A DNA stretch of 64,000 nt. It comes from an uncultured bacterium (GTDB taxonomy: Bacteria > Myxococcota_A > CAZTSL01). This document shows, piece by piece, positions 3,179-55,717 of the stretch. The stretch is taken from positions 3,929 to 67,928 of the forward strand of contig CAZTSL010000006.1 in NCBI GenBank assembly GCA_964616915.1, written 5' to 3'. The notes beneath the pieces are model-generated. The model saw nothing but the letters and a program-made list of their open reading frames with translations. It was not told the DNA's origin and searched no databases. Numbering within the stretch: the stretch's first letter is position 1; each line of letters starts with the position of its first letter. The translations under genes were made by a program, and so were the position numbers.

Positions 3179-5413
3179 TCAGAAGATGTCGTAGGAAATA
3201 CGTAGCAGGAGGTTCTGCTCCACGGAGAGGGGATCCTCCGGGGAGTTGATCTCCGGATCCCGGATGAAACGGGTGATATAGTTGAGGGCGGCATAACGCC
3301 CGAGCCGCAGGCCGATCGAGTTCTGCCAGGTGTACCGCGGGGAGGAGAGTTCGTCGAAGGGGACGAGGATGTCGAAGTCGGTGGAAGCCAACACCCAGCG
3401 GGAGAAGCGAAGCGTCCCCACCACCGCCCCCTCGATCCCTTCGATGAGGTTGTCCCCGCTCGGCCGGATCTCGACGATGTCACGCTCCTGCCCCGTCTTC
3501 GGATCCTGCACCGTCGTCTCGTTGAAGGTGAAGAAGTCGTAGGTGAGCAACTGCCGGGAGCCGACCCCGAAACGGGTGTTCAAGTCCGCATACGTCTTCT
3601 TGAGGAGCGTGAGATTGATCCCAGCCCCCTCCTTCAACGCCAGGAGGGAGAAGGCATTGGCCAGTTGCACCTCCTGGCCGGGGGGGAGGATCTCATCGAC
3701 GACGAAGGTGCCGGGCGCCGTTTCGCTCTCGACGAGGATGTGCGCCTCCTTCTCGAAGGTCCGCGTCGTGGGGAGGAGATTCGTGTCGATCCCGAAGCGG
3801 ACGTAGGGGCCGAAGGCCGGAACGTACCGGTAGATGTAGATCGAATCGAGGTCGAGGCTGTCGAAGTCCTTCGAGAAGCGGTCATCGCTCTGGCTGCGGG
3901 TCTGCCCCTCCTCGATCTCCATCCGGGTATAGAAGTAGTGCTCGTCGCGGGTGTAGGTCGTGATCGTGTCGAGGAAGAGGGAGAAGGAGATCTCCGTGCC
4001 CGATTGCCGGGCCGTGGTCGTGCCTGCGACGTTGTCGAGACTCTCGAGGGAGAGGTCCCCCCCCAACGTCATGCTGATCTTCCAGTTCCCGAGGCGGGAC
4101 ATGTCGATGTCGGGCTCGAAGACACCGGCACCGAGGAAGTTCTCCGTCTCGGGGTCGAGGACGAGGACGAAGTTCGTCAGGACCCCCGCCTTGAGTTCGA
4201 CGGTGGCGAAGTTCTTCCGGGCCCGGTAGTTCTCCCCGACCCGGATCAACTTGTAGAGGCCCGGTTTGAGGATCCATGTCTGGAGCTGTTCCCCGGTCTC
4301 CTCATCGACGCCGAAGCCGACGCCGACGACCTCCCGGGTCGGCATGTAGATCAGCTCATAACTGCCCCGGAAGGCGACGTTCTGCTCATCGACGACGCGC
4401 ACGACGAGCCCTGCCCAGACCGGCTTCACGATCGAGGTCTCCCCCTCGCGGACCTCGACGTTCTCTCGGATCCGAACGGTGTCGATCCCGGAGCCGAAAC
4501 GAATCTCGTACTTCCCGGGATCGAGGATGACCCGGGTGCCGGTCTGGGTCGATATCTTCTCTCCCTTCTCGGGGAGGATCTCCACGAGGGGTTCGCGCAA
4601 CGGTTCGGTCATCGCGGGGATGAAGATCGCACCCTTGCCGGTGGGGATCTGCTTCGTATCGAGGGCGAGTTGTTCGTCGATCGGAGGAGAGAGCCAGCTC
4701 GACTCGAAGGTCTCCCCCCTTTCGTGCTCCGCTTCCACCGTCTCGATGATCGATGCGATCTGGTCCTCCACCTTCGGTGGAACCGGAAGCTGGTCCGCCG
4801 TAGGCTCCACCCCCGCCTCTTCCGAGAGGTGTTCGTCGAAGACGACGATCATCCGGGTGATCTCCTCGAAGAGGATCTCGCTCAACTTCTGTACGATCAC
4901 CGACGGGGACTGTACCTTGACCGGTTCCTTCCGGTCGAAGGTGTAGGAGGCCACGACCGCGCCGTCCCGCTCCCGGATCAGGGAGAAGTTCATCGCCAGA
5001 TGCGCGTACCACAGATCGATGCTGTCGAGTTCCTCGATGCTCACGAGTTCACTCGTGATCGTGTAGTCGGGAAGCTGCTCCTCCACCGTCGCGGAGACCC
5101 GCGCAAAGAGCCCCGTCTTACGCAGATGCTGAACGAGGAGGTCGGCGATCATCCGCTGCGGCTTCACCGCCCAGAGATGATAGTTGTAGTACTGGAGCTT
5201 GTGGAGCGAGAAGCGGTACACGATCGGGAGCCGGTCGTACGTCTGGCTGATGCGGGGCTCCTTGACCCGAAGGAAGATCGGAAACTTGGGGACCTGCGTC
5301 TCCAGCGGGGGAAGGGGGTACTGAAGCAGGTAGTAATTCTTCCCCCGCGGAGCGGAACAGGCAGAAAGAAGCAACATCCCAAGCAAAAGGAAAACGAGCG
5401 ATCGGTGGTTCAT
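3179..5413 (-). CDS. PqiC/YmbA-like (DUF330) ABC-transport auxiliary lipoprotein fused to a ~550 aa C-terminal domain of unknown function
   Basis: Signal peptide with lipobox (MNHRSLVFLLLGMLLLSAC). The N-terminal ~190 aa is PqiC-like (YYLLQYPLPP...LPIVYRFSLHKLQYYNYHLWAVKP). The remainder is rich in alternating aromatic/hydrophobic residues and ends ...RISYDIF. It lies 20 nt downstream of the MCE gene. Confidence 0.6.
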   Translation of the reverse strand: MNHRSLVFLLLGMLLLSACSAPRGKNYYLLQYPLPPLETQVPKFPIFLRVKEPRISQTYDRLPIVYRFSLHKLQYYNYHLWAVKPQRMIADLLVQHLRKTGLFARVSATVEEQLPDYTITSELVSIEELDSIDLWYAHLAMNFSLIRERDGAVVASYTFDRKEPVKVQSPSVIVQKLSEILFEEITRMIVVFDEHLSEEAGVEPTADQLPVPPKVEDQIASIIETVEAEHERGETFESSWLSPPIDEQLALDTKQIPTGKGAIFIPAMTEPLREPLVEILPEKGEKISTQTGTRVILDPGKYEIRFGSGIDTVRIRENVEVREGETSIVKPVWAGLVVRVVDEQNVAFRGSYELIYMPTREVVGVGFGVDEETGEQLQTWILKPGLYKLIRVGENYRARKNFATVELKAGVLTNFVLVLDPETENFLGAGVFEPDIDMSRLGNWKISMTLGGDLSLESLDNVAGTTTARQSGTEISFSLFLDTITTYTRDEHYFYTRMEIEEGQTRSQSDDRFSKDFDSLDLDSIYIYRYVPAFGPYVRFGIDTNLLPTTRTFEKEAHILVESETAPGTFVVDEILPPGQEVQLANAFSLLALKEGAGINLTLLKKTYADLNTRFGVGSRQLLTYDFFTFNETTVQDPKTGQERDIVEIRPSGDNLIEGIEGAVVGTLRFSRWVLASTDFDILVPFDELSSPRYTWQNSIGLRLGRYAALNYITRFIRDPEINSPEDPLSVEQNLLLRISYDIF

Positions 5414-5433
5414 CCATCCTCTCGATGCGGTGC

Positions 5434-6444
5434 TCATTGAAATTCCCGTTCCTCCTGCTCGATGTTGCGGAAGAGCGCGGAGGGGTTCTCGAGGAGAAAT
5501 CGACTGAAATCACGAAGATTCTCCGTCGTCTGGTTGAGTTGAAGGAGCGTGGCGTCGAGGTTCTCCTGGCCCCGGGCCACGGTGAGGTTCAAACGGTGAA
5601 GGAGCCGGGCCGTATCCTCGATCGCCCCTTTGAGCCGTTCGTTCCCGAGGAGTTCGCGGGCCGCTCCCATCGTCTCCGTGGCGTTCTCGAGGAGTTCGGT
5701 GAGCGCGGCCTGCTGTTTCGGAAGATCGGCGGTCACCCGATCGATGCCGGCGACGATCTTGTGAAGCGCCGCCCGGTTCTCCTCGACGAGTCGCTCCACC
5801 GACCGGAGGGTCGCCTCCGCGGCCTGGGACGTGTCGGCCAGCCCCCTTGCCACCTCCGTGACCACAGGACGGGTCTCAACGACGAGCGTTTCGATCTCCC
5901 CCATGATCCGATCGATGCGGGTGATGATCTCCTCGATCCGTTTCCCCTGGCTTCCGCCCGTGAGGTTGACGAGGTTTTCGAGGAGGTTTTCCGTCTTGAG
6001 CGCGATCGCGGTGGCACGGCCGCTCAGATCGGTCATGAGGGAGGGTTCCTCCGCGATCTCGCCGCCGGGGGGGAGGGGAGGGGCATCCTGGGAACTCTTC
6101 ACGAGATCGATATATTTGAGCCCCGTGATCCCCAGCGTCTCGACGACCGCCTTCGTGTCCGTCTTGATCGGGGTGCCCCGTTCCACACTGATATCGACGA
6201 TCACGCGCCCCACGTTCTCGGGATCGACGCGGATCCGCTCCACGCGGCCGACCTGGACGCCGCGATACTTCACGGCGGAGCCGGGTTCGAGGCCCGTGAC
6301 GGAAGCGGTGAGCGCGATCCAATAGTGATCCCGCTTCTCCACGAGCCGGCTGCCGCCGAGGATCGCCACGGCGACGAGAAAGATCGCGGCAGCGGTGCTC
6401 ACGAAGATGCCCAGACGAACCTTCTGCGTTCGGGTCAACGCCAT
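5434..6444 (-). CDS. MCE/MlaD-family protein (single MCE domain, N-terminal TM helix, long helical C-terminus)
   Basis: 336 aa from the internal ATG (MALTRTQKVRLGIFVSTAAAIFLVAVAILGG). The MCE core is ...YWIALTASVTGLEPGSAVKYRGVQVGRVERIRV.... The C-terminal half is heptad-like and helical. Confidence 0.75.
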   Translation of the reverse strand: MALTRTQKVRLGIFVSTAAAIFLVAVAILGGSRLVEKRDHYWIALTASVTGLEPGSAVKYRGVQVGRVERIRVDPENVGRVIVDISVERGTPIKTDTKAVVETLGITGLKYIDLVKSSQDAPPLPPGGEIAEEPSLMTDLSGRATAIALKTENLLENLVNLTGGSQGKRIEEIITRIDRIMGEIETLVVETRPVVTEVARGLADTSQAAEATLRSVERLVEENRAALHKIVAGIDRVTADLPKQQAALTELLENATETMGAARELLGNERLKGAIEDTARLLHRLNLTVARGQENLDATLLQLNQTTENLRDFSRFLLENPSALFRNIEQEEREFQ

Positions 6445-6671
6445 CGGTCTCCTTTCCTCCTTCTCTCCCTCATTGCGGGCAGCGTCCTTCACAGGACCCA
6501 CGAGCGCAGGCGATGGGGAAGAAATGTGGGTGTTGAGTGACGTGACAGGAGAAAACGTTGCGGTTTTCGAGGGGAGGGTTCACCCCTTCTCGCAGGAGAT
6601 GCGTATGACGCTCCCTTCCGGCGAACGTCGATGAGTGGGGAATCGGCGGAGCGGGTCATCCGTTTCCGGCG

Positions 6672-7238
6672 TCACGCTTCCTGATAGACCGTGAAGCCTG
6701 TGCGGACCCGTTCCCTTCCCCCCCCCTTCCAGACGAAGATCGCTACGGCGTCGTAGGGGGAGAGGGTGGGATCGACCACGATCGCGGAGCGGAAGGCCTG
6801 GGAGAAGAAGTGGGTATCGATGAAACGATCGTGGCTGGAGAGGAAGAGGCCGTAACCGGGGTGCGTATGCATCCATCCAAGGATCAACCGGTCGGGATAT
6901 TCCGTTTCGATCGTTCGATGGATCGCCTCCCATGCCTCATGGGTGAAGGTGAGCGCCGCGCGATCGGAGATGGCCCGCGTGGCCGGGATGAAGCCGTCCA
7001 TCGCGACGAACTCTCCCCTCTTCCCCCTTCCGTAGGTACCGACGACGACCCCCCCCCGTTCGTGGGTGAGATCGCCGTAGGCGTAGGCCACCATTTCGCT
7101 GAGCGCATCGGTGTGGAGGAAGACGCGCAGATCGGGACGCGCATCGGTACCCCGTGGAATGACGATCCACTCCGGATGCTCGTCGGGAGCGGGAGTCTCC
7201 TTCGGTACGACAACTTTCGGGCGGACGACGACTTTCAC
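6672..7238 (-). CDS. JAB/MPN+ (JAMM) metallopeptidase
   Basis: Complete JAMM motif: upstream Glu (THERGG) followed by HTHPGYGLFLSSHD (HxHx7Sx2D). Confidence 0.8.
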   Translation of the reverse strand: MKVVVRPKVVVPKETPAPDEHPEWIVIPRGTDARPDLRVFLHTDALSEMVAYAYGDLTHERGGVVVGTYGRGKRGEFVAMDGFIPATRAISDRAALTFTHEAWEAIHRTIETEYPDRLILGWMHTHPGYGLFLSSHDRFIDTHFFSQAFRSAIVVDPTLSPYDAVAIFVWKGGGRERVRTGFTVYQEA

Positions 7239-7298: not shown

Positions 7299-7790
7299 TC
7301 ACATCACCTTGGGGGAGACGCGGATCGTGACAGAGGGCCCCCGCAGGGATCGTGGATCGAGGGGGAGCTTCTCCAGGTTGCGGCGGACCCAATCCGCGGC
7401 CACACGATCGAGCGGGGAGTTGACGTTGTGTTTCGCCAGCCGGATCATGTCCGCCAACTCCGCCACGAAATCGGCCAGCGACCAGCTCGCGGCCCAGTGG
7501 CTGCTGTGGCAGACCGCCTCCCCCCGGATGTTCGGGTGAAAGATCGGCGTCAGCCACGTCACGTCGGGGGGATGGGAGGGATAGTGCGCGCCGAGGAGCA
7601 TCCGGCATTGGTGGAAGTCGGAGATCACGATCCGGTCCTCCACGCGCATCAATCCCCGGCATCGGAAGGTGAGGAGATAGCGGGTCGGCGGGGTTCCCTC
7701 CGTCACGAAATCGAACCAGTCGGCCCGTGCCCCAAGCCGGATCATCTCCTCGTAGTCGTTGTGGAGGCGGATATCCCTTCGCCGTTGCAT
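7299..7790 (-). CDS. UBC-fold ubiquitin-conjugating-enzyme (E2)-like protein
   Basis: 163 aa. The UBC pattern is RL..DY.EM......DW...(F).....YLLTFRC.G......ISDFH..M.L...YP..PPDV.WLTPIFHPNIRGEAVCHSSHW.ASWSLADFVAELADMI..NVNSPLD..AADW. HPN sits at residues 85-87 and the candidate catalytic Cys at 94, matching eukaryote-type E2 spacing. Confidence 0.6.
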   Translation of the reverse strand: MQRRRDIRLHNDYEEMIRLGARADWFDFVTEGTPPTRYLLTFRCRGLMRVEDRIVISDFHQCRMLLGAHYPSHPPDVTWLTPIFHPNIRGEAVCHSSHWAASWSLADFVAELADMIRLAKHNVNSPLDRVAADWVRRNLEKLPLDPRSLRGPSVTIRVSPKVM

Positions 7791-7802: not shown

Positions 7803-8120
7803 CTACCCGACAGGGACGGCCGGACGATCGACGTCACCAAGGGGGGGAGCCTGCCCTGCCACGAAGGTCGAAGTGAGCAGGAAGACGTCTCCATTCTTGC
7901 AGTTCTGCTCCGCCAACGTCGCTTCTTCCGGGAGCGTGCGGCCCGTTCGTTTGTTCAGGAGTTCGTAGCTCACCCGGTCTCCGTCCGGTCCGACGAGGGG
8001 GAGCCCGAGCTGATTGACGATCTCGGGCAGGAGAATCGCGAGTTTCTCATCGTCGGGCAATTCCACGTCGAATTCCTGGTTCGTATCCGCCCGAATGATG
8101 GACACCTGTAGCTGAGCCAT
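7803..8120 (-). CDS. small beta-grasp ubiquitin-like protein (105 aa), candidate conjugation substrate/modifier
   Basis: Internal ATG of ORF 7803..8435 (MAQLQVSIIRADTNQEFDVELPDD...). Its size and alternating pattern fit a beta-grasp fold. The tail ...TSTFVAGQAPPLGDVDRPAVPVG carries Gly residues that could be exposed by JAB processing. It lies 12 nt upstream of the E2-like gene. Confidence 0.45.
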   Translation of the reverse strand: MAQLQVSIIRADTNQEFDVELPDDEKLAILLPEIVNQLGLPLVGPDGDRVSYELLNKRTGRTLPEEATLAEQNCKNGDVFLLTSTFVAGQAPPLGDVDRPAVPVG

Positions 8121-8196
8121 ATTTGCGGAGGTCCTTTCTATCTCGAATCTGGCTGGAGGGACGTTCGATTCCCCTCGAGGTCGTAAATACGGTCGG

Positions 8197-9564
8197 TCAT
8201 GGCCGTGCGATCCAGATCGGGCTGCTCCAGAGATCCTGGTTCTGGCCGTCGAGTTGACGGAGATGAACGAGGAAGTAGCCTCCCGACGCGGCCACCGGGG
8301 CCTCGAAGCGGTAGGTTCCCTCCCGCACCGGCTCGGGGAAGGGCGCGGGGGAGAGGGGACGCGCCCGCTCGCCCCCCTCCGCGTCGTCGTAGAAGACCTC
8401 GACACGATAGGCGCGTTCCGGTTCGGAACGGTCATGGAACGTGATCGTCAACACGATCCGCTCCCCGGGGAAGGGGATCTCCTCCCCCATGAAATGGCGC
8501 CCATCCCCCGTTGCGAAGAGGAATTCGATGTCCCGATCCTCGGTCGCATAGGTCCGCCGCTCGTAGAGCGCGCGCATCAACGCTTCCCGGCTCTTCTCCG
8601 TCACCACGGCGCCTACCCGGAACTCGTTGAGCGTCCCCCAGTTCTGTGCATGGTTGTCCTGCCCCGCCGAAGCTCCGATCCGGAACCCCTCGTTGAGGAG
8701 TTCGAGGTAGTAGGGAGCGCCGTACTCGTCGTCGAAGTCACCGTTGAGCACCTCGATCAGGCGGCTGTAGCGGTTGAGCGTGGAGACCCAGGCAGCCTTC
8801 GAGGGGAAGTCGTCCGTGCCGTACTGGAGGTCGGGGGGACTGCTCGGATGAGCGGGATGATTGAGCTGCACGAAGATCTTCTCCCCGTAGCCCGTCGTCG
8901 GGTGCCGCCCCTCGTAGGCGGGGAGCCACTGCTCGAAGAGGAGATCGTAGCGTCCCGAAGCCGTGGTCACGTGTTCCGTGATGTTGAAGACGTTGATGTG
9001 GTTGCCGCTGGAGATCGTCGACCACTCCTCGCCGAAGATCGGGAAGTAGTTCTCTCCTTCCGCCTCCCGGGCGCTCTCCACGAGGAATTCGAGTTCCCGG
9101 GGATCGGTGAGGTGGCTGTGGGGTGTGATCGCCATGAAATCGAGACCGCCGGCTTCCCGGCCGAAGCGGAAGGCTGCCGGCGCATCCCCCCCCGCATAGA
9201 GATCGGGGTGCTCCATCCGGTAGGTCCGCCACGAGACGCCATCGGGGTAGCTGCGTTCCACCCCTTCGGGCCATCCGCCGTCGTCCCCCCCCTCGACCTT
9301 GCCGTCGCGGCTTCTGGCGTAATGGTGGCTGTGGAGCGAGCCGAAGAGGTAGAGGAAGCCAGAAGGATCGAAGGGTGTTTCCGTGGCCGCCCCCTCCTGC
9401 GAGGCTCCTTCCCCTTCCGAGGCCGTCTCCTCCGCTGCCGTCCCCAGCGAGGCGACGCCTGCGATTCCATCGTCTTCCGGTTTCGACGAGGAAGAGGGCA
9501 GACAGGCCGCTATCGAGATCATGATCGGCAAGGCCGTCGTCCAGGATCGAGTGTGGCGTTTCAT
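8197..9564 (-). CDS. secreted PHP-domain metal-dependent phosphoesterase lipoprotein (CehA/McbA-like)
   Basis: Signal peptide with lipobox (...ISIAAC). PHP motif I is LFGSLHSHHYARSRDG, with further His-rich motifs (ITPHSHL, NHPAHP). Confidence 0.55.
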   Translation of the reverse strand: MKRHTRSWTTALPIMISIAACLPSSSSKPEDDGIAGVASLGTAAEETASEGEGASQEGAATETPFDPSGFLYLFGSLHSHHYARSRDGKVEGGDDGGWPEGVERSYPDGVSWRTYRMEHPDLYAGGDAPAAFRFGREAGGLDFMAITPHSHLTDPRELEFLVESAREAEGENYFPIFGEEWSTISSGNHINVFNITEHVTTASGRYDLLFEQWLPAYEGRHPTTGYGEKIFVQLNHPAHPSSPPDLQYGTDDFPSKAAWVSTLNRYSRLIEVLNGDFDDEYGAPYYLELLNEGFRIGASAGQDNHAQNWGTLNEFRVGAVVTEKSREALMRALYERRTYATEDRDIEFLFATGDGRHFMGEEIPFPGERIVLTITFHDRSEPERAYRVEVFYDDAEGGERARPLSPAPFPEPVREGTYRFEAPVAASGGYFLVHLRQLDGQNQDLWSSPIWIARP

Positions 9565-19899: not shown

Positions 19900-22478
19900 T
19901 CGAGGGGGGAGAGGGTTTCGAGGTTCACGTTGCGGAGGGTCTCGGCGATGGGATCGTTCGCCGGGGCGAAGAGAGGGATCTGGCGGGGATCGACGGGACG
20001 GGGACGGGGGATGCGGCGGCGCTGCTTCCTGTCGATCTCGCTCGGCGAGGTCTTTGCGATGTTGGCCTCGATCTTCTCGAGATTCGCGAGGATCTCTCGC
20101 GCACGTTCGATGACGATGTCGGGGAGTCCCGCCAGCCGGGCGACCTCGATCCCGTAGCTGTGGGAGGTGGCACCCGGTGCGATCTTGCGGAGGAAGACGA
20201 TCCGGTCCCCCCACTCCTTGACCGTGACGTTGTAGTTGCGGATGCGCGGTTTGACCTCCTCGAGTTCGGCGAGTTCGTGGTAGTGGGTGGCAAAGAGGGT
20301 CTTTGCGCCGAGGGGGGCGTGGTCGTGGAGGTATTCCGCGACGGCCCAGGCGATCGAGACGCCGTCGAAGGTGCTCGTGCCGCGGCCGATCTCGTCGAGG
20401 AGGATGAGGCTTCTGCGGGTGGCGTTCTGGAGGATCCGGGCGGTCTCCTTCATCTCGACCATGAAGGTGCTCTCCCCCCGGGCGAGATGGTCGCCGGCGC
20501 CGATCCGGGTGAAGATCCGGTCGATGATGCCGATCCGGGCGCTGCGGGCGGGGACGAAGGCGCCGATCTGGGCCATGAGGACGATGAGGGCCACCTGGCG
20601 CATGTAGGTCGATTTTCCCGCCATGTTCGGACCGGTCAGGATGACGATCTGCTCGCGAAGATCGAGGTGCGTGTCGTTGGGCACGAAGCCCTCGCCAAGG
20701 TCGATCCGCTCCACCACGGGGTGGCGTCCCTCGGTGATGTCGAGCCGGTCGGAGGTGTCGATGCGGGGGCGGGTGTAGTCGTAGAGGCGGGCGATCGTGG
20801 CAAGGTTCGTCACGACGTCGAGGAGGGCGAGGGTATCGGCGGTCTGCTGGATCCGATCGATCGCCTCGCCGATCCTCTCCCGCACCTCGCAGAAGAGGGC
20901 GTACTCGAGTTCGTTGATCCGGTCCTCGGCGCCGAGCACCTTCTCCTCGTAGCTCTTGAGTTCGGGGGTGATGAAGCGCTCGCTGTTGGTGAGCGTCTGT
21001 TTGCGCTCGTAGCGTTCCGGCACGAGGTGGAGGTTGGGGCGGGTCACCTCGATGTAGTATCCGAAGACGCGATTGAAGCGGACCTTGAGGGAGGAGATCC
21101 CGGTCTTTTTTCGTTCCTCGAGTTCGAGGTTGGCGATCCACCCCTTCCCGTCGCGGCTGATCGAACGGAGTTCGTCGAGTTCGGCGTTGTATCCCTCGGC
21201 GATGATCCCCCCCTCCTTGAGGGTGGTGGGTGCCTCGGGCGCGATCGCCTCGCGGATCGTATCGACGAGATCCGAAAGGGGGTCGAGGGGCGCCTGGGCC
21301 AGGAGGGGGGGGAGGGGAGAGAGTTCGGCGAGGTATCCGATCAGGGTGGGGAGACGACCGGCCGAATCGGCCAGCGCAAGGAGATCACGGGGGGTGGCGT
21401 TGCCCAGCGCGATCCTGCCGGAGAGCCGTTCGAGGTCATGGACCCCTTTGAGCGCTTCGCGGACCTCCTCGCAGAGGAGATCGTTCTCCACGAAGGCGGC
21501 CACGGCGTCGAGGCGTTCCTCGATGCGCTCCGGATCGAGGAGGGGGTAGAGGAGCCACTGGCGCAGTTTCCTCCCCCCCATCGCGGTGACCGTCTCGTCG
21601 AGGACCCCGAGCAGCGACCCCTTGCGCTTGCGCTCCTCGCGGGTGCTGAAGATCTCGAGGTTACGCCGGGTCGATTCGTCGAGGTAGAGGTAGTCGTGGC
21701 TCTCGTAGGCGTGGGGGCGATGGAGGTGCGGGATGGCCCCCCGCTGATGTTCCCGCAGGTAGCCGAGGAGCCCCCCACAGGCCAGGAGGGCCGCCGGCTT
21801 GTCGGCAAGACCGGTCTCGTCGAGGGAGCGGAGGCGGAACTGCTCGATGAGGAGCGCTGCGCACGCATCGAGCGATGGTTCCGGGATCGTGGAGAAGCTG
21901 CACGGACCGATGAGTTCGACGATCCGCTCCTCGGAGAGGGGGGTGAAGCTGGCGGGACGCACGAGTTCCCGCGGCGCGATGCGCAACATCTCGCCGGCAA
22001 AGTGACTCACCCGGCCGGTCGTCGTCTTGAACTCCCCGGTGGAGAGATCGGCGAAGGCAATGCCGAACGTCTCCGGATCGTGGGGGTCGCTGACGGCGCA
22101 GGCGAGGAAGTTGTTCACGCGGGGGGAGAGTCCCTCCGTCTCGATGTAGGTCCCCGGTGTGACGACGCGGACCACCTCCCGCTCGAGGATCTTTCGTCCG
22201 CCACCTCCCGAATCGACCTGCTCGCAGATCGCGACCTTGTAGCCCGCCTCGATCAGGCGATGGATGTGAACCTGGGCGTTGTGGCAGGGAACGCCGCAGA
22301 AGGGGACATGCTCCTTCGATTTACGATTGCGCGTCGTCAGGGCGATGTCGAGGATGCGTGAGGCGATCTCGGCATCCTCGAAGAACATCTCGTAGAAGTC
22401 GCCCATCCGGAAGAAGAGGATCGCATCACGGTGTGCTTCCTTGATCGCGAGATATTGCCGCATGATTGGCGTGTCCAT
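19842..22478 (-). CDS. mutS: DNA mismatch repair protein MutS
   Basis: 878 aa, MDTPIMRQYLAIKEAHRDAILFFRMGDFYEMF..., with the Walker A motif GPNMAGKST. Confidence 0.95.
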   Translation of the reverse strand: MDTPIMRQYLAIKEAHRDAILFFRMGDFYEMFFEDAEIASRILDIALTTRNRKSKEHVPFCGVPCHNAQVHIHRLIEAGYKVAICEQVDSGGGGRKILEREVVRVVTPGTYIETEGLSPRVNNFLACAVSDPHDPETFGIAFADLSTGEFKTTTGRVSHFAGEMLRIAPRELVRPASFTPLSEERIVELIGPCSFSTIPEPSLDACAALLIEQFRLRSLDETGLADKPAALLACGGLLGYLREHQRGAIPHLHRPHAYESHDYLYLDESTRRNLEIFSTREERKRKGSLLGVLDETVTAMGGRKLRQWLLYPLLDPERIEERLDAVAAFVENDLLCEEVREALKGVHDLERLSGRIALGNATPRDLLALADSAGRLPTLIGYLAELSPLPPLLAQAPLDPLSDLVDTIREAIAPEAPTTLKEGGIIAEGYNAELDELRSISRDGKGWIANLELEERKKTGISSLKVRFNRVFGYYIEVTRPNLHLVPERYERKQTLTNSERFITPELKSYEEKVLGAEDRINELEYALFCEVRERIGEAIDRIQQTADTLALLDVVTNLATIARLYDYTRPRIDTSDRLDITEGRHPVVERIDLGEGFVPNDTHLDLREQIVILTGPNMAGKSTYMRQVALIVLMAQIGAFVPARSARIGIIDRIFTRIGAGDHLARGESTFMVEMKETARILQNATRRSLILLDEIGRGTSTFDGVSIAWAVAEYLHDHAPLGAKTLFATHYHELAELEEVKPRIRNYNVTVKEWGDRIVFLRKIAPGATSHSYGIEVARLAGLPDIVIERAREILANLEKIEANIAKTSPSEIDRKQRRRIPRPRPVDPRQIPLFAPANDPIAETLRNVNLETLSPLEAFRILEELVKRAKGEAPS

Positions 22479-23088
22479 CGGAGATGCTCCCGAATGTCGT
22501 CGTCTCTACCCGGCAGGATCGGAGTTGTTCCCGGTACTCCGCCGATTTCCAGGGATCCCCCACTGCTTCGTACCCTTCGGCGAGATGTGTGAGGAGGATG
22601 CAACGGGGTACGCCCGGGGTATCGATCAGTTCGTGAAACGCCAGGATCGCTCGGGCCGTCTTCCCTTCGGCGAGCAGGATCTCGGCGAGATGGAAGCGCG
22701 CGAGGGGATGGAGCCGGGTAAGGGTCGGAGGGATCGCCTCGAGCAGGGCGCGCGCCCGGTCGAACTCGCCGATTCGGGCACGGGAGAGGGCTTCCCGGAA
22801 GTGGAAGTGGAAGCGATCCGGGGAAGGGCGCGCCATCCTGGCGCAGCGCGCGAAACACGCAGCCGCCTCCGCAAAGGCCCCGGAGAGGAAGGCGATCTCG
22901 CCCCTGGTGCAGTTCCGTTCCGCCGGGAGGGGGGACGCTTTGTACGCGACACGCTTGGCGCTGGAATCCCCCTTCGTCGCCATGGGTGCTCGAGGCTTCC
23001 CCCCCTCCCCCCGGAGCGGGACCGGTACCCCGAGGACGAGGAGGGCAAGGAGGAGGATCGAAGCAACGAAGCTACGAGGCCGGGGCAT
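22426..23088 (-). CDS. TPR-repeat protein, LapB/YciM-like context but lacking the C-terminal rubredoxin-like domain
   Basis: Signal peptide present. TPR-like helices (AFLSGAFAEAAACFARCARMA..., LAEILLAEGKTARAILAFHELID). It follows a LapA-like gene, and its 3' end overlaps the mutS start by about 50 nt. Confidence 0.5.
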   Translation of the reverse strand: MPRPRSFVASILLLALLVLGVPVPLRGEGGKPRAPMATKGDSSAKRVAYKASPLPAERNCTRGEIAFLSGAFAEAAACFARCARMARPSPDRFHFHFREALSRARIGEFDRARALLEAIPPTLTRLHPLARFHLAEILLAEGKTARAILAFHELIDTPGVPRCILLTHLAEGYEAVGDPWKSAEYREQLRSCRVETTTFGSISDGHANHAAISRDQGSTP

Positions 23089-23488
23089 GCTGGGGCTCCC
23101 CCCCTCCTTCGTCGATCATCGGTGTCGGTTCGATGTCGCTCTCCTTGAGTTCCTGGAGTTCCTGTTCGAGCGCTTCGAGACGTTTCGCCTGCGCCTCGAT
23201 CGTCTTGCGCTGTTTGCGCAGGTTGCGCCGGTATCCGAACCATCCGAAGAAGAGATCGAGAACGCCCCCGACGAGGACGCCGAGCGTGAAGGAGACGAGG
23301 ATCAGGATTCCCGCCTCCATCGAGAAGTCGGGTTCCTCCTTCGGATGGATCGTCGCCCAGTATTCCTTTTCCCAGAACTTGTAGTCGATGTTGATGCGGG
23401 TGACGAGGCTCTCCTTGTTCTTCCAGAGGAACCCGAATACGCCGATCAGGACGAGGAGAACGAAGGTGTAGGAAATGATTTTCGGCAT
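23072..23488 (-). CDS. LapA-family (DUF1049) inner-membrane protein
   Basis: Two TM helices followed by YRRNLRKQRKTIEAQAKRLEALEQEL, the LapA/YciS architecture. Confidence 0.6.
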   Translation of the reverse strand: MPKIISYTFVLLVLIGVFGFLWKNKESLVTRINIDYKFWEKEYWATIHPKEEPDFSMEAGILILVSFTLGVLVGGVLDLFFGWFGYRRNLRKQRKTIEAQAKRLEALEQELQELKESDIEPTPMIDEGGGEPQHAPAS

Positions 23489-27548: not shown

Positions 27549-27706
27549 GGGAAAAGTCACGAAAAGTTACAGGGTTAGTGATGTCGAGGCCCCTTTCGTC
27601 GGATGGGAAAGCCGGCCTCCTCTCCCTCCGGAAGATGCCGTGGGATCGTCTCCGGTGCCTTTCGCATCCCTTGCGAGGGGAGGGAGTGGGGAGGCGTGCG
27701 GGGGTC

Positions 27707-28276
27707 TCATCCTCTTCCCAAGGTCTTGATCGCCTGGAGTGCGGCGAGTCGAACGGCTCCCGAGTCGTCCCCCAGGGCCTCTTGCAAGGGGGCGACCACG
27801 ATCTCCCGGGGAAAGCGCGCAAGGGCTTGGGCTGCCTCGACACGGATCTCCTCGACCGGGTCCTTGAGCCCTCGAAAGAGAATCCGCGCGGTCTCCTCGT
27901 CGCGGGCGAGCGTGGCGATCATTCCGATCCCCGCCCTGCGCACCTCGAGGGCCGGGTCGTCGAGGAGGGCCTCGAAGTAGGGGACCACGCTGCGCCCGAG
28001 AAAGAGGGCGAGCGCCTGGGCCGTGCGCAGGCGCACCTCGGGCTCCGGATCGTTGAGGAGCGGGAGGAGGTACTTCGTCGTGTCCTTCCGTTGCAACCGG
28101 CAGAGGTTATCGATGGCGTGGAGGCGATCCTCGACGTCTTCGCTGGTGAGCTTGCGACGGCAGAGGTGGAAGAGTTCCTTACGGCGTTGCGGATCGAGCT
28201 TCGTGACATCGATCGCCGCGGTCGGACCTTCGCTCGGCGGCGGCGGCTTCACCGTGCCTCGTCTTCCCTGGGTCAT
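27707..28276 (-). CDS. HEAT-repeat (PBS-lyase-like) protein, 189 aa
   Basis: Internal ATG (MTQGRRGTVKPPPP...). Repeated LLNDPEPEVRLRTAQALA / LLDDPALEVRRAGIGMIA / LKDPVEEIRVEAAQALA / LGDDSGAVRLAALQAI units. The remaining 5' part of ORF 27707..30691 is antisense to the RND gene and was discarded. Confidence 0.6.
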   Translation of the reverse strand: MTQGRRGTVKPPPPSEGPTAAIDVTKLDPQRRKELFHLCRRKLTSEDVEDRLHAIDNLCRLQRKDTTKYLLPLLNDPEPEVRLRTAQALALFLGRSVVPYFEALLDDPALEVRRAGIGMIATLARDEETARILFRGLKDPVEEIRVEAAQALARFPREIVVAPLQEALGDDSGAVRLAALQAIKTLGRG

Positions 28277-28480
28277 CGTTTCCCCCCTTACGCTTTCGGC
28301 GTCACCTGCGGCCAAAGTCCGCCAGGTGTATGCCGTCGTCAGACGTTCCCTGCACGCTGCGGCCCATCCCTCCGATCGTCCTTCTCCGGCTCCAACACGG
28401 TCTGGGTGGACTTCTCCTGCTTGTCCGGCGGATCGCCGTGCTTGCGAATTTTCCGGCGGGGCTGGGTGCGCCGCCATCCC

Positions 28481-28509
28481 TTCGAAATCGGAAAGGAAGC
28501 CGCTATAAT
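28481..28509 (+). promoter_or_regulatory. candidate promoter TTCGAA-17-TATAAT about 50 nt upstream of the RND transporter ATG
   Basis: ttcgaa-atcggaaaggaagccgc-tataat. Confidence 0.3.
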
Positions 28510-28558
28510 GCCCTCCCATCATACCACGCTTTCCCGCGATCGCAAAGGGAGAGGACGC

Positions 28559-30850
28559 ATGAACCGGAAGCTGGAGAGCCTGGCGATCTTTCTCGCCACG
28601 CACCGTCGGATTTTCCTCCTGCTGGCCCTGCTGGCCTTCCTCTACTTCGGGAGATGGGCCAGCCGGCTTGGTGTCGATTCCGGCAACGAGGCGCTCTTTC
28701 TGCGGGACGACCCTGCGCGCGCCGCCCAGGCGCGCTTCGAGGAGCATTTCGGGGGGAACGATCCGATCGTGGTGGCGATCGAAGGGGAGATCTTCTCCGC
28801 GCGCGGGCTCGAGCGTCTCGATGCGCTCACCGAGGCACTCGCTGCGCGACCGGGGGTGACGCAGGTCCTTTCCCTCACGAACTTCGAGAACATCTACAAG
28901 GGTCCTCTCGAGATCTACACGTGGGCGCCCTACGAATCGGTCGTGGATGGGGACGAAACGATCGAAGCCTTCGCCGCGGAGGTCCTCTCGGAGCCGCTGT
29001 GTCGGGGGAACCTGATCTCTCCGGATGGGAGGACTGCGGCCGTGATCGTGACGATCTCCGGGGGAGGGGGGGCACGCGTACGGGAGTTGCTGCGCACCGC
29101 CAAATCGTTCGAGGGGGAGGGCTACCACGTCTACGTAGCGGGATTCCCGATCGAACGTTTCACGATGGCCGAGACGATCCGGCGGGATCGACGCCGCCTC
29201 GTCCCCCTCTCCGTGCTCGTGATCGCGCTGACGACGGCGTTCCTCTTCCGGCAGCTCTGGGGGGTTCTCCTCCCCCTGCTCACCGTGGGGCTCTCCGTGA
29301 CGGTGACGCTGGGGATCGCGGCCCTTCTGGGCAAGACGCTCAACGCGATCACGAACCTCCTCACCCCGCTCGTGATGGTCCTCTCCGTGGCGGTGAGCGT
29401 CAACCTCTGCATTGCCTATACGCAGGAGCGCAGGACGCACGCGCCGGGGATCGCCGCGATCGGGGCGGCATTCCGCCGGGTGGGGGGGGCCTGTCTCTTC
29501 ACGACGCTGACGACGATGATCGGTTTCGGAGCGCTTGCGATCTCGAAGGTGCCGGCGATTCGGGATTTCGGCCTCCTCTGTGCCGTGGGGGTGGGGGTCT
29601 CCTATCTGGCTGCGCTCCTCCTCCTTCCTCCCCTCTTCGCGCTGCCGTGGGGGTGGGGCCCCCGACGTCTGCACGCCCGTCCCGGCAAGGTCGAGGGGCT
29701 CCTCTCCGCCACGGCGCCGATGATCGGCCGGCACTACCGGGCCATTCTCGGACTCGCCTTCCTGGTCATCGTGGCGGCGTTCTTCGGGATCGGACGGATC
29801 GAAGTGGAGACCGACATCCTGGCCCAGCTCCCCCCCGACGCCGAGTTCGTCCGCGCAACGAAGGTGATCGATGACCGGCTCGGCGGCGTCAACACGATCG
29901 AATTCCTCTTCACCGGCGCCCCTGGTGCATTCGAAGACTTTGCCACGATGCGGGCCCTCCATGCCTTCCAGGAGGAAATCCGTGCATACCCCGAAATCCG
30001 CAAGACCCTTTCGATCCTCGACATCGTGGCGCGGATCGAGGAGGTACGGAGCGGCAGGCGGGGTTTCCCCCGGGACGCGGAGACCTTGCGCTACGAGCTT
30101 CGTCTCCTCGAGCATGCGCCGCCGGAATCTCCGGTTCACCTCCTCATCACACCCGACCGGCGTGTTGCGCGTCTCAGCGTGCGTCTCGGCGCGCTTCCCG
30201 CATCGAAGGTCTATGCGTTGATCGAACGGCTCGAGCGGCGGGCGGCACGACTCGTTCCACCTGCGATTCGGGTGGAACCGGCCGGGGAGTTCGTCCTCAT
30301 CCAGAACATGACGCATGAGCTTCCCTATGCGCAGGTGCGTGGAATCGTGTTGGCCACGCTCCTCATCGTCTTCGTGATCTCCCTCCTCTTCCGTTCGTTG
30401 CGTGCCGGCCTTCTGTCGGCGCTCCCCGCCTCGATTCCGATCCTCTTCGTCTATGGGGTGATGGGGTGGTTCGGAATTGATCTTTCGACGACGACGAGCA
30501 TGATCGCCTCGGTGGTGCTGGGACTCGCCGTCGATTCGACGATCCTCTTCCTCTCCCGTTTCCTGGCCGAGGTGCAAGGAGGGTGTTCCGTGTCTGCAGC
30601 CACGGAACGGATGCTCGAGACGGCGGGGCAATCGGTGAGTTACTCGAATCTCACGCTCGTCTTCGGCTTCGGGATCAGTGCGCTCTCGCACTTCCCGCCG
30701 GTCCGCAACTTCGGGATCCTCTGCGCGGGCACGATCGCGTGTAGCTTCCTCGGCGCGGTCTTCCTCCTCGGCGCACTCCTCCAGACCTCCCTCGCCGCCG
30801 GCGGTGGTGTAGGGGGGACACCGGACGCGAAGGAGCGGGAAGGGGATTGA
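28559..30850 (+). CDS. RND-superfamily MMPL-type exporter (HpnN-like), 763 aa
   Basis: Internal ATG MNRKLESLAIFLATHRRIFLLLALLAFLYFG. Two 6-TM bundles are separated by a periplasmic domain, with MMPL-type repeats (...GFPIERFTMAETIRRD... / ...LTLVFGFGISALSHFPPVRNFG...). Confidence 0.7.
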   Translation: MNRKLESLAIFLATHRRIFLLLALLAFLYFGRWASRLGVDSGNEALFLRDDPARAAQARFEEHFGGNDPIVVAIEGEIFSARGLERLDALTEALAARPGVTQVLSLTNFENIYKGPLEIYTWAPYESVVDGDETIEAFAAEVLSEPLCRGNLISPDGRTAAVIVTISGGGGARVRELLRTAKSFEGEGYHVYVAGFPIERFTMAETIRRDRRRLVPLSVLVIALTTAFLFRQLWGVLLPLLTVGLSVTVTLGIAALLGKTLNAITNLLTPLVMVLSVAVSVNLCIAYTQERRTHAPGIAAIGAAFRRVGGACLFTTLTTMIGFGALAISKVPAIRDFGLLCAVGVGVSYLAALLLLPPLFALPWGWGPRRLHARPGKVEGLLSATAPMIGRHYRAILGLAFLVIVAAFFGIGRIEVETDILAQLPPDAEFVRATKVIDDRLGGVNTIEFLFTGAPGAFEDFATMRALHAFQEEIRAYPEIRKTLSILDIVARIEEVRSGRRGFPRDAETLRYELRLLEHAPPESPVHLLITPDRRVARLSVRLGALPASKVYALIERLERRAARLVPPAIRVEPAGEFVLIQNMTHELPYAQVRGIVLATLLIVFVISLLFRSLRAGLLSALPASIPILFVYGVMGWFGIDLSTTTSMIASVVLGLAVDSTILFLSRFLAEVQGGCSVSAATERMLETAGQSVSYSNLTLVFGFGISALSHFPPVRNFGILCAGTIACSFLGAVFLLGALLQTSLAAGGGVGGTPDAKEREGD

Positions 30851-54406: not shown

Positions 54407-55717
54407 TCACCGGCGTCGTCCTCGTCCCTTGAAGCGCATCCCCTTCCCCAGGAAACCGTCGTAGTGCCGCGTCAGGAGGTGGGCCTCCACCTGCTGGACC
54501 GTGTCGAGCGCCACGCCCACGACGATCAGGAGTGCGGTTCCACCGAAGTAGAAGGGAACCTTCATCTCCGCGATCAGGATCGTCGGCAGCACGCAGACCG
54601 CCGCCACATAGATCGCCCCGCCGAAGGTGATGCGGGTGAGCACGCGATCGATGTAGGCCGCCGTCTTCTTTCCGGGGCGGATCCCTGGAATGTAGCCCCC
54701 CTGCTTCTTGAGGTTGTCCGCCACATCGATCGGGTTGAAGGTGACGGCGGTGTAGAAGTAGCAGAAGAAGATGATCAGGATGATGTAGACGAAGCTATAG
54801 ACGAGATGCCCCGGTGACATCCAACGCACGAAGGTGTTCATCCAGGGGACGTTCATGAAACCGGCCAGCGTCGAGGGGAACATCAGGATCGAGGAGGCGA
54901 AGATCGGCGGGATCACCCCGGCGGTATTGATCTTGAGGGGCAGATGCGTGCTCGCGCCTCCGTAGATCTTGCGTCCCACGATCCGTTTGGCGTGCTGCAC
55001 CGGGATCCTGCGCTGTGCCCGCTCGATCCAGATGATGACCCCGACCACGACGACCATCACGGCCAGGAGGATCAGCATCGAGAAGGGCTTCATCTCTCCG
55101 GTCTTCATCAACTGGACGGTCCGGAAGATCGCGGAGGGGAGGCGGGCCACGATCCCGGCGAAGATGATGAGGGAGATTCCGTTGCCGATCCCATGCTCCG
55201 TGATCTGCTCGCCAAGCCACATGATGAAGGCCGTGCCCGCCGTAAGCGTGATCACCGTCATCAACCGGAATTTGAGGCCCGGTTCGAGCACGATCCCGGA
55301 GCCCGCCATTCCGTTCTCCAGGCCGTAGGCGATCATGAAACCCTGGAAGATGCTGAGGAGCACCGTTCCGTAGCGGGTGTACTGCGTGATCTTCTTGCGG
55401 CCGTCCGGCTCTTTGGAGAGTTTCTCGAGGTAGGGCCAGACCACGGTGAGGAGCTGCAGGATGATCGAGGCGCTGATGTAGGGCATGATCCCAAGCGCAA
55501 AGATCGACAGCTTCTTCAGTGCGCCTCCCGAGAACATGTCGAGCATCCCGAAGATCGAGCCGCGCGACTGCTGGAAGAAGTTCGCCAGCGCCTGGGTGTC
55601 GATCCCCGGCGTGGGCACCGCGACCCCGACCCGGTAGAGCGCGAGGATCCCGAGGGTGAAGAAGACCTTCTTTTTGAGTTCCGGGATCTTGAGGAGATTT
55701 TGAACGGCGGACAACAT
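54407..55717 (-). CDS. secY: preprotein translocase subunit SecY
   Basis: 436 aa, 10 TM helices. Confidence 0.95.

Follow-up and report, generated by a model that had tools for sequence, protein, structure and literature searches.

An MCE needle-type protein and a PqiC-like lipoprotein with a predicted outer-membrane barrel module in an uncultured Myxococcota_A bacterium

We analyzed a 64,000-nucleotide stretch of DNA (the window) from an uncultured bacterium of the Myxococcota_A lineage CAZTSL01 (assembly GCA_964616915.1, contig CAZTSL010000006.1, positions 3,929 to 67,928 of the forward strand), focusing on two adjacent genes of the minus strand. One encodes an MCE/MlaD-type protein, and the other a lipoprotein with a PqiC-like N-terminal domain and a long C-terminal extension, part of which is predicted to form an outer-membrane (OM) β-barrel. 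An earlier note made from the sequence alone had described this pair, and both open reading frames (ORFs) were found where it had placed them. The MCE gene occupies 5434..6444 (−) within an ORF of 5434..6501; translation from the ATG at 6444 gives 336 amino acids (aa), with a membrane anchor at the N-terminus, a single MCE domain, and then a long helical tail of the needle-forming type. A strong Shine-Dalgarno-like sequence, GGAGGAAAGGAGA, is located 5′ of this ATG at 6448-6460. The fused lipoprotein gene at 3179..5413 (−) is an uninterrupted reading frame within an ORF of 3179..5437, and from the start at 5413 it encodes 744 aa, not the 745 previously counted, ending in ...RISYDIF. The TGA stop codon of the MCE gene overlaps an in-frame ATG at 5437 as ATGA (5434-5437), making translational coupling from ATG 5437 a possible alternative to initiation at ATG 5413, from which the gap between the genes is 20 nucleotides (nt). 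Both starts would yield an identical mature protein once cleaved at the lipobox LLSAC (Cys19), which ends the signal peptide (5357..5413, −) recognized by eye from the sequence. Cys19 was invariant across 14 aligned fused homologues. The GC content at third codon positions of the lipoprotein gene was 0.87, typical of real genes in the window, and both genes are intact ORFs that show a strong GC bias by codon position and have ribosome-binding sites. A promoter and terminator scan around the two genes gave nothing interpretable.

The MCE (MlaD) domain covers residues 45-115 of the first protein (6100..6312, −; Pfam PF02470, E 3.8e-19, 69.1 bits against a cut-off of 25.1), and TIGR00996 (“MCE family protein”) matched residues 18-270 with an E-value of 1.6e-24. 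The best PDB match was 13hr_I, a 312-aa “Mce/MlaD domain-containing protein,” to which residues 4-261 aligned (E 1.4e-18). Together, these matches bore out the MlaD-type assignment. We presume that entry 13hr is the PA3211-PA3214 complex of Pseudomonas aeruginosa; 13hr_I fits PA3213 of that complex by length and name (PMC13631591). The 13hr_I alignment and the TIGR00996 match also point to one MCE domain followed by a long helical needle at the C-terminus, and the Pfam family Helical_needle was recorded for the partner MCE proteins of related locus L001 and, faintly, L034. Comparison of partner MCE proteins further revealed a conserved C-terminal motif, ENLRDFSRFLLENPSALF (5470..5523, −), followed by a short charged tail. 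Its consensus, ENLxxFSxxIxE(D/N)PSxLLxG, was present in 17 of 20 partner MCE proteins from related loci, the remaining three extractions being frame-garbled. In PA3213, the C-terminal seven residues occupy a hydrophobic groove on the OM-pointing face of the PA3214 ring (PMC13631591), and by analogy with this peptide the motif may be a candidate docking peptide.

The PqiC-like domain of the lipoprotein (ABC_trans_aux/DUF330) spans residues 28-181 (4871..5332, −), with a PF03886 match (E 5e-16, 59.1 bits) well above the gathering cut-off of 26. We modeled the whole lipoprotein with AlphaFold2 (AF2) from a 48-sequence alignment, giving a mean predicted local distance difference test score (pLDDT) of 86, with 420 residues at or above 90. 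The N-terminal domain was modeled as an α/β fold (residues 28-200), for which Foldseek returned 2iqi (XCC0632) with a target-normalized TM-score of 0.74 and a root-mean-square deviation (rmsd) of ~4 Å. A phmmer search with the same domain retrieved 13hr_A (E 5e-4), 13hq_A, and 2iqi_A. The N-terminal NYYLL segment, in which Y28 is invariant, aligned with the start of 13hr_A; in PA3214, ring formation requires an N-terminal interface segment located upstream of residue 55 (PMC13631591). The family score and the fold match thus confirmed that the first ~190 residues are PqiC/DUF330-like. The mixed α/β fold, the lipobox signal read by eye, and the adjacent MCE gene are likewise features of PqiC-like proteins. 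Its size is not, as such proteins are single-domain and ~190-230 aa long, whereas this one is 744 aa with three further structural units. Neither Pfam nor NCBIfam contains a family that matched residues 200-744 at threshold.

The first of these units is a helical, low-confidence linker (residues 182-259; 4637..4870, −), with pLDDT falling to 56-66 around residues 210-240. Its length varies among homologues, some of which carry inserts of up to ~150 residues in the alignment. Next come two tandem immunoglobulin-like (Ig-like) β-sandwiches of the CnaB/transthyretin-like kind (residues 260-431; 4121..4636, −), delimited by the AF2 model and by conservation. When residues 240-440 were modeled alone, AF2 gave a pLDDT of 94.9 and a predicted template modeling score (pTM) of 0.89. 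Foldseek matched this pair to generic tandem-sandwich proteins only (TIE, Gram-positive pilins, and the PepT1 extracellular domain), and it had no Pfam match. The pair is the most conserved part of the Ig-like and barrel extension, hereafter the module, holding 14 of the 22 invariant columns in the 48-sequence alignment. One 944-aa cluster representative, P0181, matched the Ig-like pair only (52% identity to module residues 55-204), so the sandwich pair also occurs in another architecture.

The third unit is the predicted OM β-barrel (residues 444-744; 3182..4084, −), with ~14 long strands, a terminal Phe, and 45 residues (545-589) inserted between strands 5 and 6; the count of 14 long antiparallel strands plus the loop insert was read from the DSSP string of the AF2 model. 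With the exception of four 2iqi chains, the top 50 Foldseek matches in the PDB were all OM barrels, with the barrel fold matching FapF, autotransporter translocators, OmpG, FadL/TodX, AlgE, and porins at E-values of 2e-8 to 1e-5. As the rmsd was ~10 Å, the barrel has no close solved relative. Strand residues alternate, those presumed to face lipid being mostly L, I, F, and V, and those presumed to face the lumen mostly S, G, R, T, D, and E; the family consensus C-terminus is LLRFSYxxF. This alternation and the C-terminal aromatic β-signal are features of OM barrels. The Ig-like pair would be periplasmic, as the strand number is even and the domains preceding the barrel follow a periplasmic lipoprotein domain. 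The model is therefore consistent with the earlier suggestion of a β-rich, possibly OM-embedded extension of ~550 residues, and it contained no known soluble domain. Pfam and NCBIfam scans of the module gave a few OMP_b-brl and DUF481 matches, all sub-threshold. DUF3078 (PF11276), a family of unknown function, showed weak similarity to strands 2-5 of the barrel in 22 of the 48 family members (best E 3e-5), and its score for the window protein, 17.5 bits, was likewise below the 25-bit gathering cut-off; its 92-position model covers neither the Ig-like pair nor the remainder of the barrel. A profile of the module family matched nothing among PDB sequences, and Foldseek returned only generic barrels and tandem Ig-like proteins, so we rejected the idea of a specific solved relative of the module.

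We then examined how this architecture is distributed. A homologue search recovered 47 proteins, 21 of which were full-length fusions (724-819 aa, 32-46% identity) from several phyla, all with PF03886 and none with an internal signal peptide. The other 26 were stand-alone proteins of ~500-625 aa that consist of the module only, each with a signal peptide of its own and without any Pfam domain. Databases annotate the homologues as PqiC or auxiliary lipoprotein. An exhaustive module-only search over 1.84 billion cluster representatives (50%-identity clusters) yielded 575 clusters at E ≤ 1e-3, of which 200 reached E ≤ 1e-30. Among the best 150 representatives, ~30 were fused, with the module starting after residue 215, and the rest (~80%) were split, the separate genes encoding 500-630 aa. 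According to genome records, the family belongs mostly to Myxococcota/Myxococcales metagenome-assembled genomes (MAGs), with further members in “Deltaproteobacteria,” Bdellovibrionales, Calditrichota (including a Caldithrix abyssi MAG), Cloacimonadota/Cloacimonetes, and one Verrucomicrobiia-labeled MAG. Fused loci were recorded in MAGs of Myxococcota, Calditrichota, Cloacimonadota, and “Deltaproteobacteria.”

The earlier note had reasoned that finding the two halves as separate genes in close relatives would point to an assembly or frameshift artefact, in this case one joining pqiC to a barrel gene. The halves are indeed often separate, in ~80% of the top 150 representatives and often with a few-base overlap with pqiC, but they are adjacent or overlapping within an MCE cluster, and the inference of an artefact did not follow. 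The window ORF is uninterrupted, and the 21 independent fusions come from different assemblies and phyla and share a variable-length linker without an internal signal peptide. We therefore rejected an artefact, which is highly improbable given a fusion conserved in independent assemblies. In a neighbor-joining tree of the module, a crude distance tree in which truncation of gene calls may account for some “split” entries, fused and split forms interleaved, arguing for more than one fusion or fission event and pointing to a physical partnership of the module with PqiC. The module is thus an independent, often separately encoded component.

To place the module in its genomic context, we located it, along with MlaE, MlaF, MlaD, and PqiC, at 35 related loci from the Pfam matches of called genes and from local tblastn searches. 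At every related locus with enough flank, the module had an MCE gene and a PqiC domain next to it. At all 20 distinct fused loci, the cluster included MlaE and/or MlaF, and the gene immediately upstream of the fusion encoded the MCE protein. Writing E, F, D, and C for MlaE, MlaF, MlaD, and PqiC, and C~module for the fusion, the order was E-F-D-[C~module] at Myxococcota-type loci and D-[C~module]-E-F in Calditrichota and Cloacimonadota. Split arrangements included E-F-D-C-module at L034 and module-E-F-D-C on the P0030 contig, with the short contigs L025, L026, and L029 starting likewise (module, then MlaE). The split loci L009 and L035 had D-C-module with no adjacent E or F, and their gene overlaps were 4 and 44 nt. 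In loci with precomputed Pfam annotation, except L034, MlaE carried an MlaB-like STAS domain fused to its N-terminus (L001 7046-8203, L003 4562-5671, L005 7080-8183, and L007 6224-7336). This clustering of the module with STAS-MlaE and MlaF in most relatives amends the proposal that the fusion might be a one-piece conduit, indicating not a self-sufficient system but the outer part of an ABC-driven one. With this amendment and that of the frequent separate encoding, the earlier interpretation was supported, and it withstood each of the refuting checks that the note had set. Persistence of the module in the cluster through operon reshuffling, together with its repeated fusion, is strong comparative evidence that it acts physically with the PqiC-like lipoprotein; repeated fusion is also a classical genomic sign of physical interaction.

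The related clusters are not always compact. In two Myxococcales MAGs, the MlaE-MlaF-MlaD cluster was interrupted (L011 4387-5322; L024 4380-6040 and 7380-8885). We rejected these inserted genes as extra conserved components, as they encode a glutaminase, a 2-hydroxyacid dehydrogenase, and ORFs without a Pfam match. We also noted genes 3′ of split modules, namely one of 846 aa without a Pfam match (L034 9873-12413), one of 819 aa with Wzy_C and faint TPR matches (L035 9587-12046), and one of 351 aa without a Pfam match (L009 11614-12669). These could be another component or unrelated. Finally, a divergent gene for a FadL/Toluene_X-type OM channel adjoins STAS-MlaE at L001 (5386-6795, −), and a faint Toluene_X match lies a few genes off at L009 (2852-4219, −). 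These neighbors may hint at a hydrophobic substrate or may be there by chance.

Within the window itself, the ABC partners were absent. MlaE and MlaF queries from two related operons gave zero tblastn matches over the 64 kb, so the encoding of MlaE and MlaF together with the MCE and PqiC-like genes, a feature of Mpc-type systems, is not seen here. Only two ORFs had at least seven predicted membrane segments. The first (27578-30850, +) encodes a 1,090-aa MMPL/sterol-sensing-domain RND-type transporter, and the second (54407-55717) was taken as SecY by eye, unscanned. No PqiA/LetA-like partner was found among these ORFs, the PqiA/LetA model itself not having been run. The absence of an adjacent MlaE/MlaF or PqiA, noted earlier from the sequence, was thus upheld. 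The pair could, then, be a decaying or orphaned, nonfunctional remnant that a rearrangement has parted from its ABC transporter, particularly as MlaE, MlaF, or both were in the cluster at all other fused loci examined. We consider this unlikely. Both ORFs are intact, with the coding bias and ribosome-binding sites described above, and the window lipoprotein keeps all family-invariant residues, though as the reference sequence of the alignment. The split loci L009 and L035 also lack adjacent MlaE/MlaF, showing that the detached arrangement recurs. The likeliest situation is presumably a putative trans-encoded MlaEF elsewhere in the genome.

The position often held by MlaE/MlaF in relatives is here taken by three genes of a ubiquitin-like (Ubl) cassette, encoding a JAB/MPN protease (6672-7238, −), a UQ_con E2-like protein (7299-7790, −), and a YukD-like Ubl (7803-8150, −). 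The earlier note was correct that the cassette lies directly upstream on the same strand; its linkage to the pair was not conserved, as homologues of JAB, E2, Ubl, the 455-aa lipoprotein described below, and other flanking genes were found in 0 of the 35 related loci. It could be argued that the MCE/PqiC-barrel pair works with this cassette, perhaps as the envelope-located target or output of a ubiquitin-like conjugation system, given the shared strand and the mere 227 nt, with no terminator-like site, between the JAB stop (6672) and the MCE start (6444). Against this stand the missing homologues, the usual presence of MlaE/MlaF at that position, and the fact that operons of the module family are sometimes broken by plainly unrelated genes. 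We therefore treated the adjacency as incidental and rejected a functional link as very unlikely. Just upstream of the Ubl gene, a 455-aa ORF (8197-9564, −) has an N-terminal signal and a lipobox-like SIAAC but no Pfam match. Further along, a TPR protein adjoins a LapA-domain protein at 22426-23488 (−), resembling LapB/LapA, and this pairing points to a lipopolysaccharide-containing outer membrane.

Outer-membrane barrels are also tied to MCE systems through OmpC/F with MlaA, and through TGD4 in chloroplasts. Neither of these, nor the MlaD-barrel of Veillonella, involves a PqiC-like lipoprotein. The Veillonella parvula MlaD resembles our system in having an OM β-barrel covalently built into the bridge of an MCE system (PMC10665443). 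There, however, the barrel is fused to the MCE protein and there is no PqiC-like lipoprotein, with no mention of PqiC in that paper, whereas here the barrel is on or beside the lipoprotein; the two barrels were compared by description only. Closer in gene content is P. aeruginosa PA3211-PA3214, which likewise has a single-MCE helical-needle protein of similar length, a PqiC-like OM lipoprotein encoded directly downstream, and MlaE/MlaF-type ABC partners, found here in relatives. It differs in that PA3214 is 214 aa with no membrane-spanning part, as opposed to two Ig-like domains and a barrel here, and in that the partner MlaE in our relatives has an N-terminal STAS domain, with MlaE/MlaF not adjacent in the window. 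PA3214 and PqiC are both lipid-anchored octameric rings, and the PA3213 needle threads the ring (PMC13631591, PMC10897342). Brucella abortus MpcEFDA is a system of this kind, powered by MlaEF, with an MCE needle protein and a PqiC-like lipoprotein last in the operon, though MpcA is a plain PqiC homologue and no barrel module has been described (PMC12436622). In Escherichia coli PqiABC (PMC10897342), PqiC shares the fold and lipid anchor, and by analogy a ring around the MCE needle tip would be expected here, but PqiB has three MCE domains, its partner PqiA is not an ABC transporter, and PqiC is 187 aa without an extension.

PelC-PelB and LptE-LptD, discussed in PMC13631591, offer a further likeness, as in both a PqiC-like α/β-fold lipoprotein is paired with an OM barrel for export. 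These are separate polypeptides with stoichiometries of 12:1 and 1:1 (plug-in-barrel), respectively, with much larger barrels and no MCE needle, and the module profile searched against PDB sequences revealed no detectable sequence relationship with PelB or LptD. By its domains and closest relatives, the predicted system is of the chimeric Mla-Pqi type (Brucella MpcEFDA, Pseudomonas PA3211-PA3214) with an added OM barrel. Our full-text literature searches, of incomplete coverage such that an earlier mention is possible, found no account of a PqiC-barrel fusion or of the module.

Taking these data together, we think it probable that the two genes encode the periplasmic and OM parts of an ATP-binding cassette (ABC)-type MCE trans-envelope transporter, in which the module is partnered physically with the PqiC ring. 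This reading builds on the domain composition, predicted folds, conservation, gene neighborhood, and repeated fusion and fission observed above. For oligomeric state, needle docking, OM insertion, barrel function, substrate, and transport direction, we infer the following arrangement. By homology to PA3213, the MCE protein would sit in the inner membrane and form a hexameric ring, its long C-terminal helices making a hollow hydrophobic needle across the periplasm. The lipoprotein would be lipid-anchored to the inner leaflet of the OM, and its PqiC-like domains would ring the needle tip, as in PA3214 and PqiC. The flexible linker would covalently tie each PqiC-like domain to two periplasmic Ig-like domains and a ~14-stranded OM barrel. 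As such, the module would be a dedicated fifth component of this subfamily, mostly a separate gene and fused in about one-fifth of the top cluster representatives. Most likely, it would fix the PqiC ring and the needle tip into the OM, and it may also be the site where a hydrophobic substrate enters or leaves the membrane. Energy would be supplied by STAS-MlaE/MlaF, adjacent in most relatives and here presumably encoded elsewhere in the genome.

Several observations weigh against this reading. The whole-chain AF2 model had a pTM of 0.56, and the relative placement of the domains is not fixed by the model. With no close solved relative of the barrel, its lumen and any lateral gate are not defined by homology, and the presumed lumen-facing residues are polar and not obviously suited to a lipid path. 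The 1:1 stoichiometry of the fusion, giving eight barrels per octamer, fits a single exit pore less well than a peripheral anchor. Neither MlaE/MlaF nor a PqiA-like partner was found in the window, such that the pair could be an orphan or could work differently, and the module tree is crude, as described.

Some of these points bear on whether the barrel module is a true substrate conduit into or across the OM rather than just an anchor, comparable to LptD, the PelB-PelC ring, or the lateral exit of FadL-type channels. The Ig-like pair and barrel are conserved as a whole wherever found, and in MCE clusters at loci with enough flank. In size, a barrel of 14 strands with a long loop insertion falls in the class of FadL/TodX and OmpG, the L001 operon is adjoined by the divergent FadL/Toluene_X gene, and analogies to PelC-PelB and LptDE were raised in PMC13631591. 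We nevertheless regard a conduit as possible but somewhat doubtful. A 1:1 fusion and an octameric PqiC ring would imply eight barrels, which fits a peripheral anchor better than a single central exit pore, and a barrel number equal to that of the ring protomers, a long flexible linker, and a polar predicted lumen all argue for the anchor. We therefore favor a module that holds the PqiC ring and needle tip in the OM.

PqiC-like proteins lack a membrane-spanning pore and the pore-forming regions of CsgG (PMC13631591, a 2026 cryo-EM study), and the same study called the OM translocation step unclear, with as yet unknown OM binding partners among the options. A conserved barrel that sits in MCE/PqiC clusters at the loci examined is a concrete candidate for the OM end of MCE tunnels, a gap stated in that work. 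We tentatively suggest, with some doubt, that the Ig-like and barrel module may be the missing OM partner of PqiC-type MCE tunnels, complexed with the PqiC ring and allowing substrate passage into or across the OM. The module also defines a protein family without Pfam, NCBIfam, or PDB coverage, comprising hundreds of 50%-identity clusters, mostly from Myxococcota. The natural 1:1 tethered construct gives a handle for structural study of where the needle tip meets the OM. The finding overturns nothing established, and provides a concrete candidate, open to testing, for a step described as unresolved in current structural papers. If the suggestion is true, the fused and split genes would be a tractable model for the step left unresolved in PqiABC, PA3211-PA3214, and Mpc, and this subfamily would carry hydrophobic molecules from an inner-membrane ABC transporter to or through the OM.

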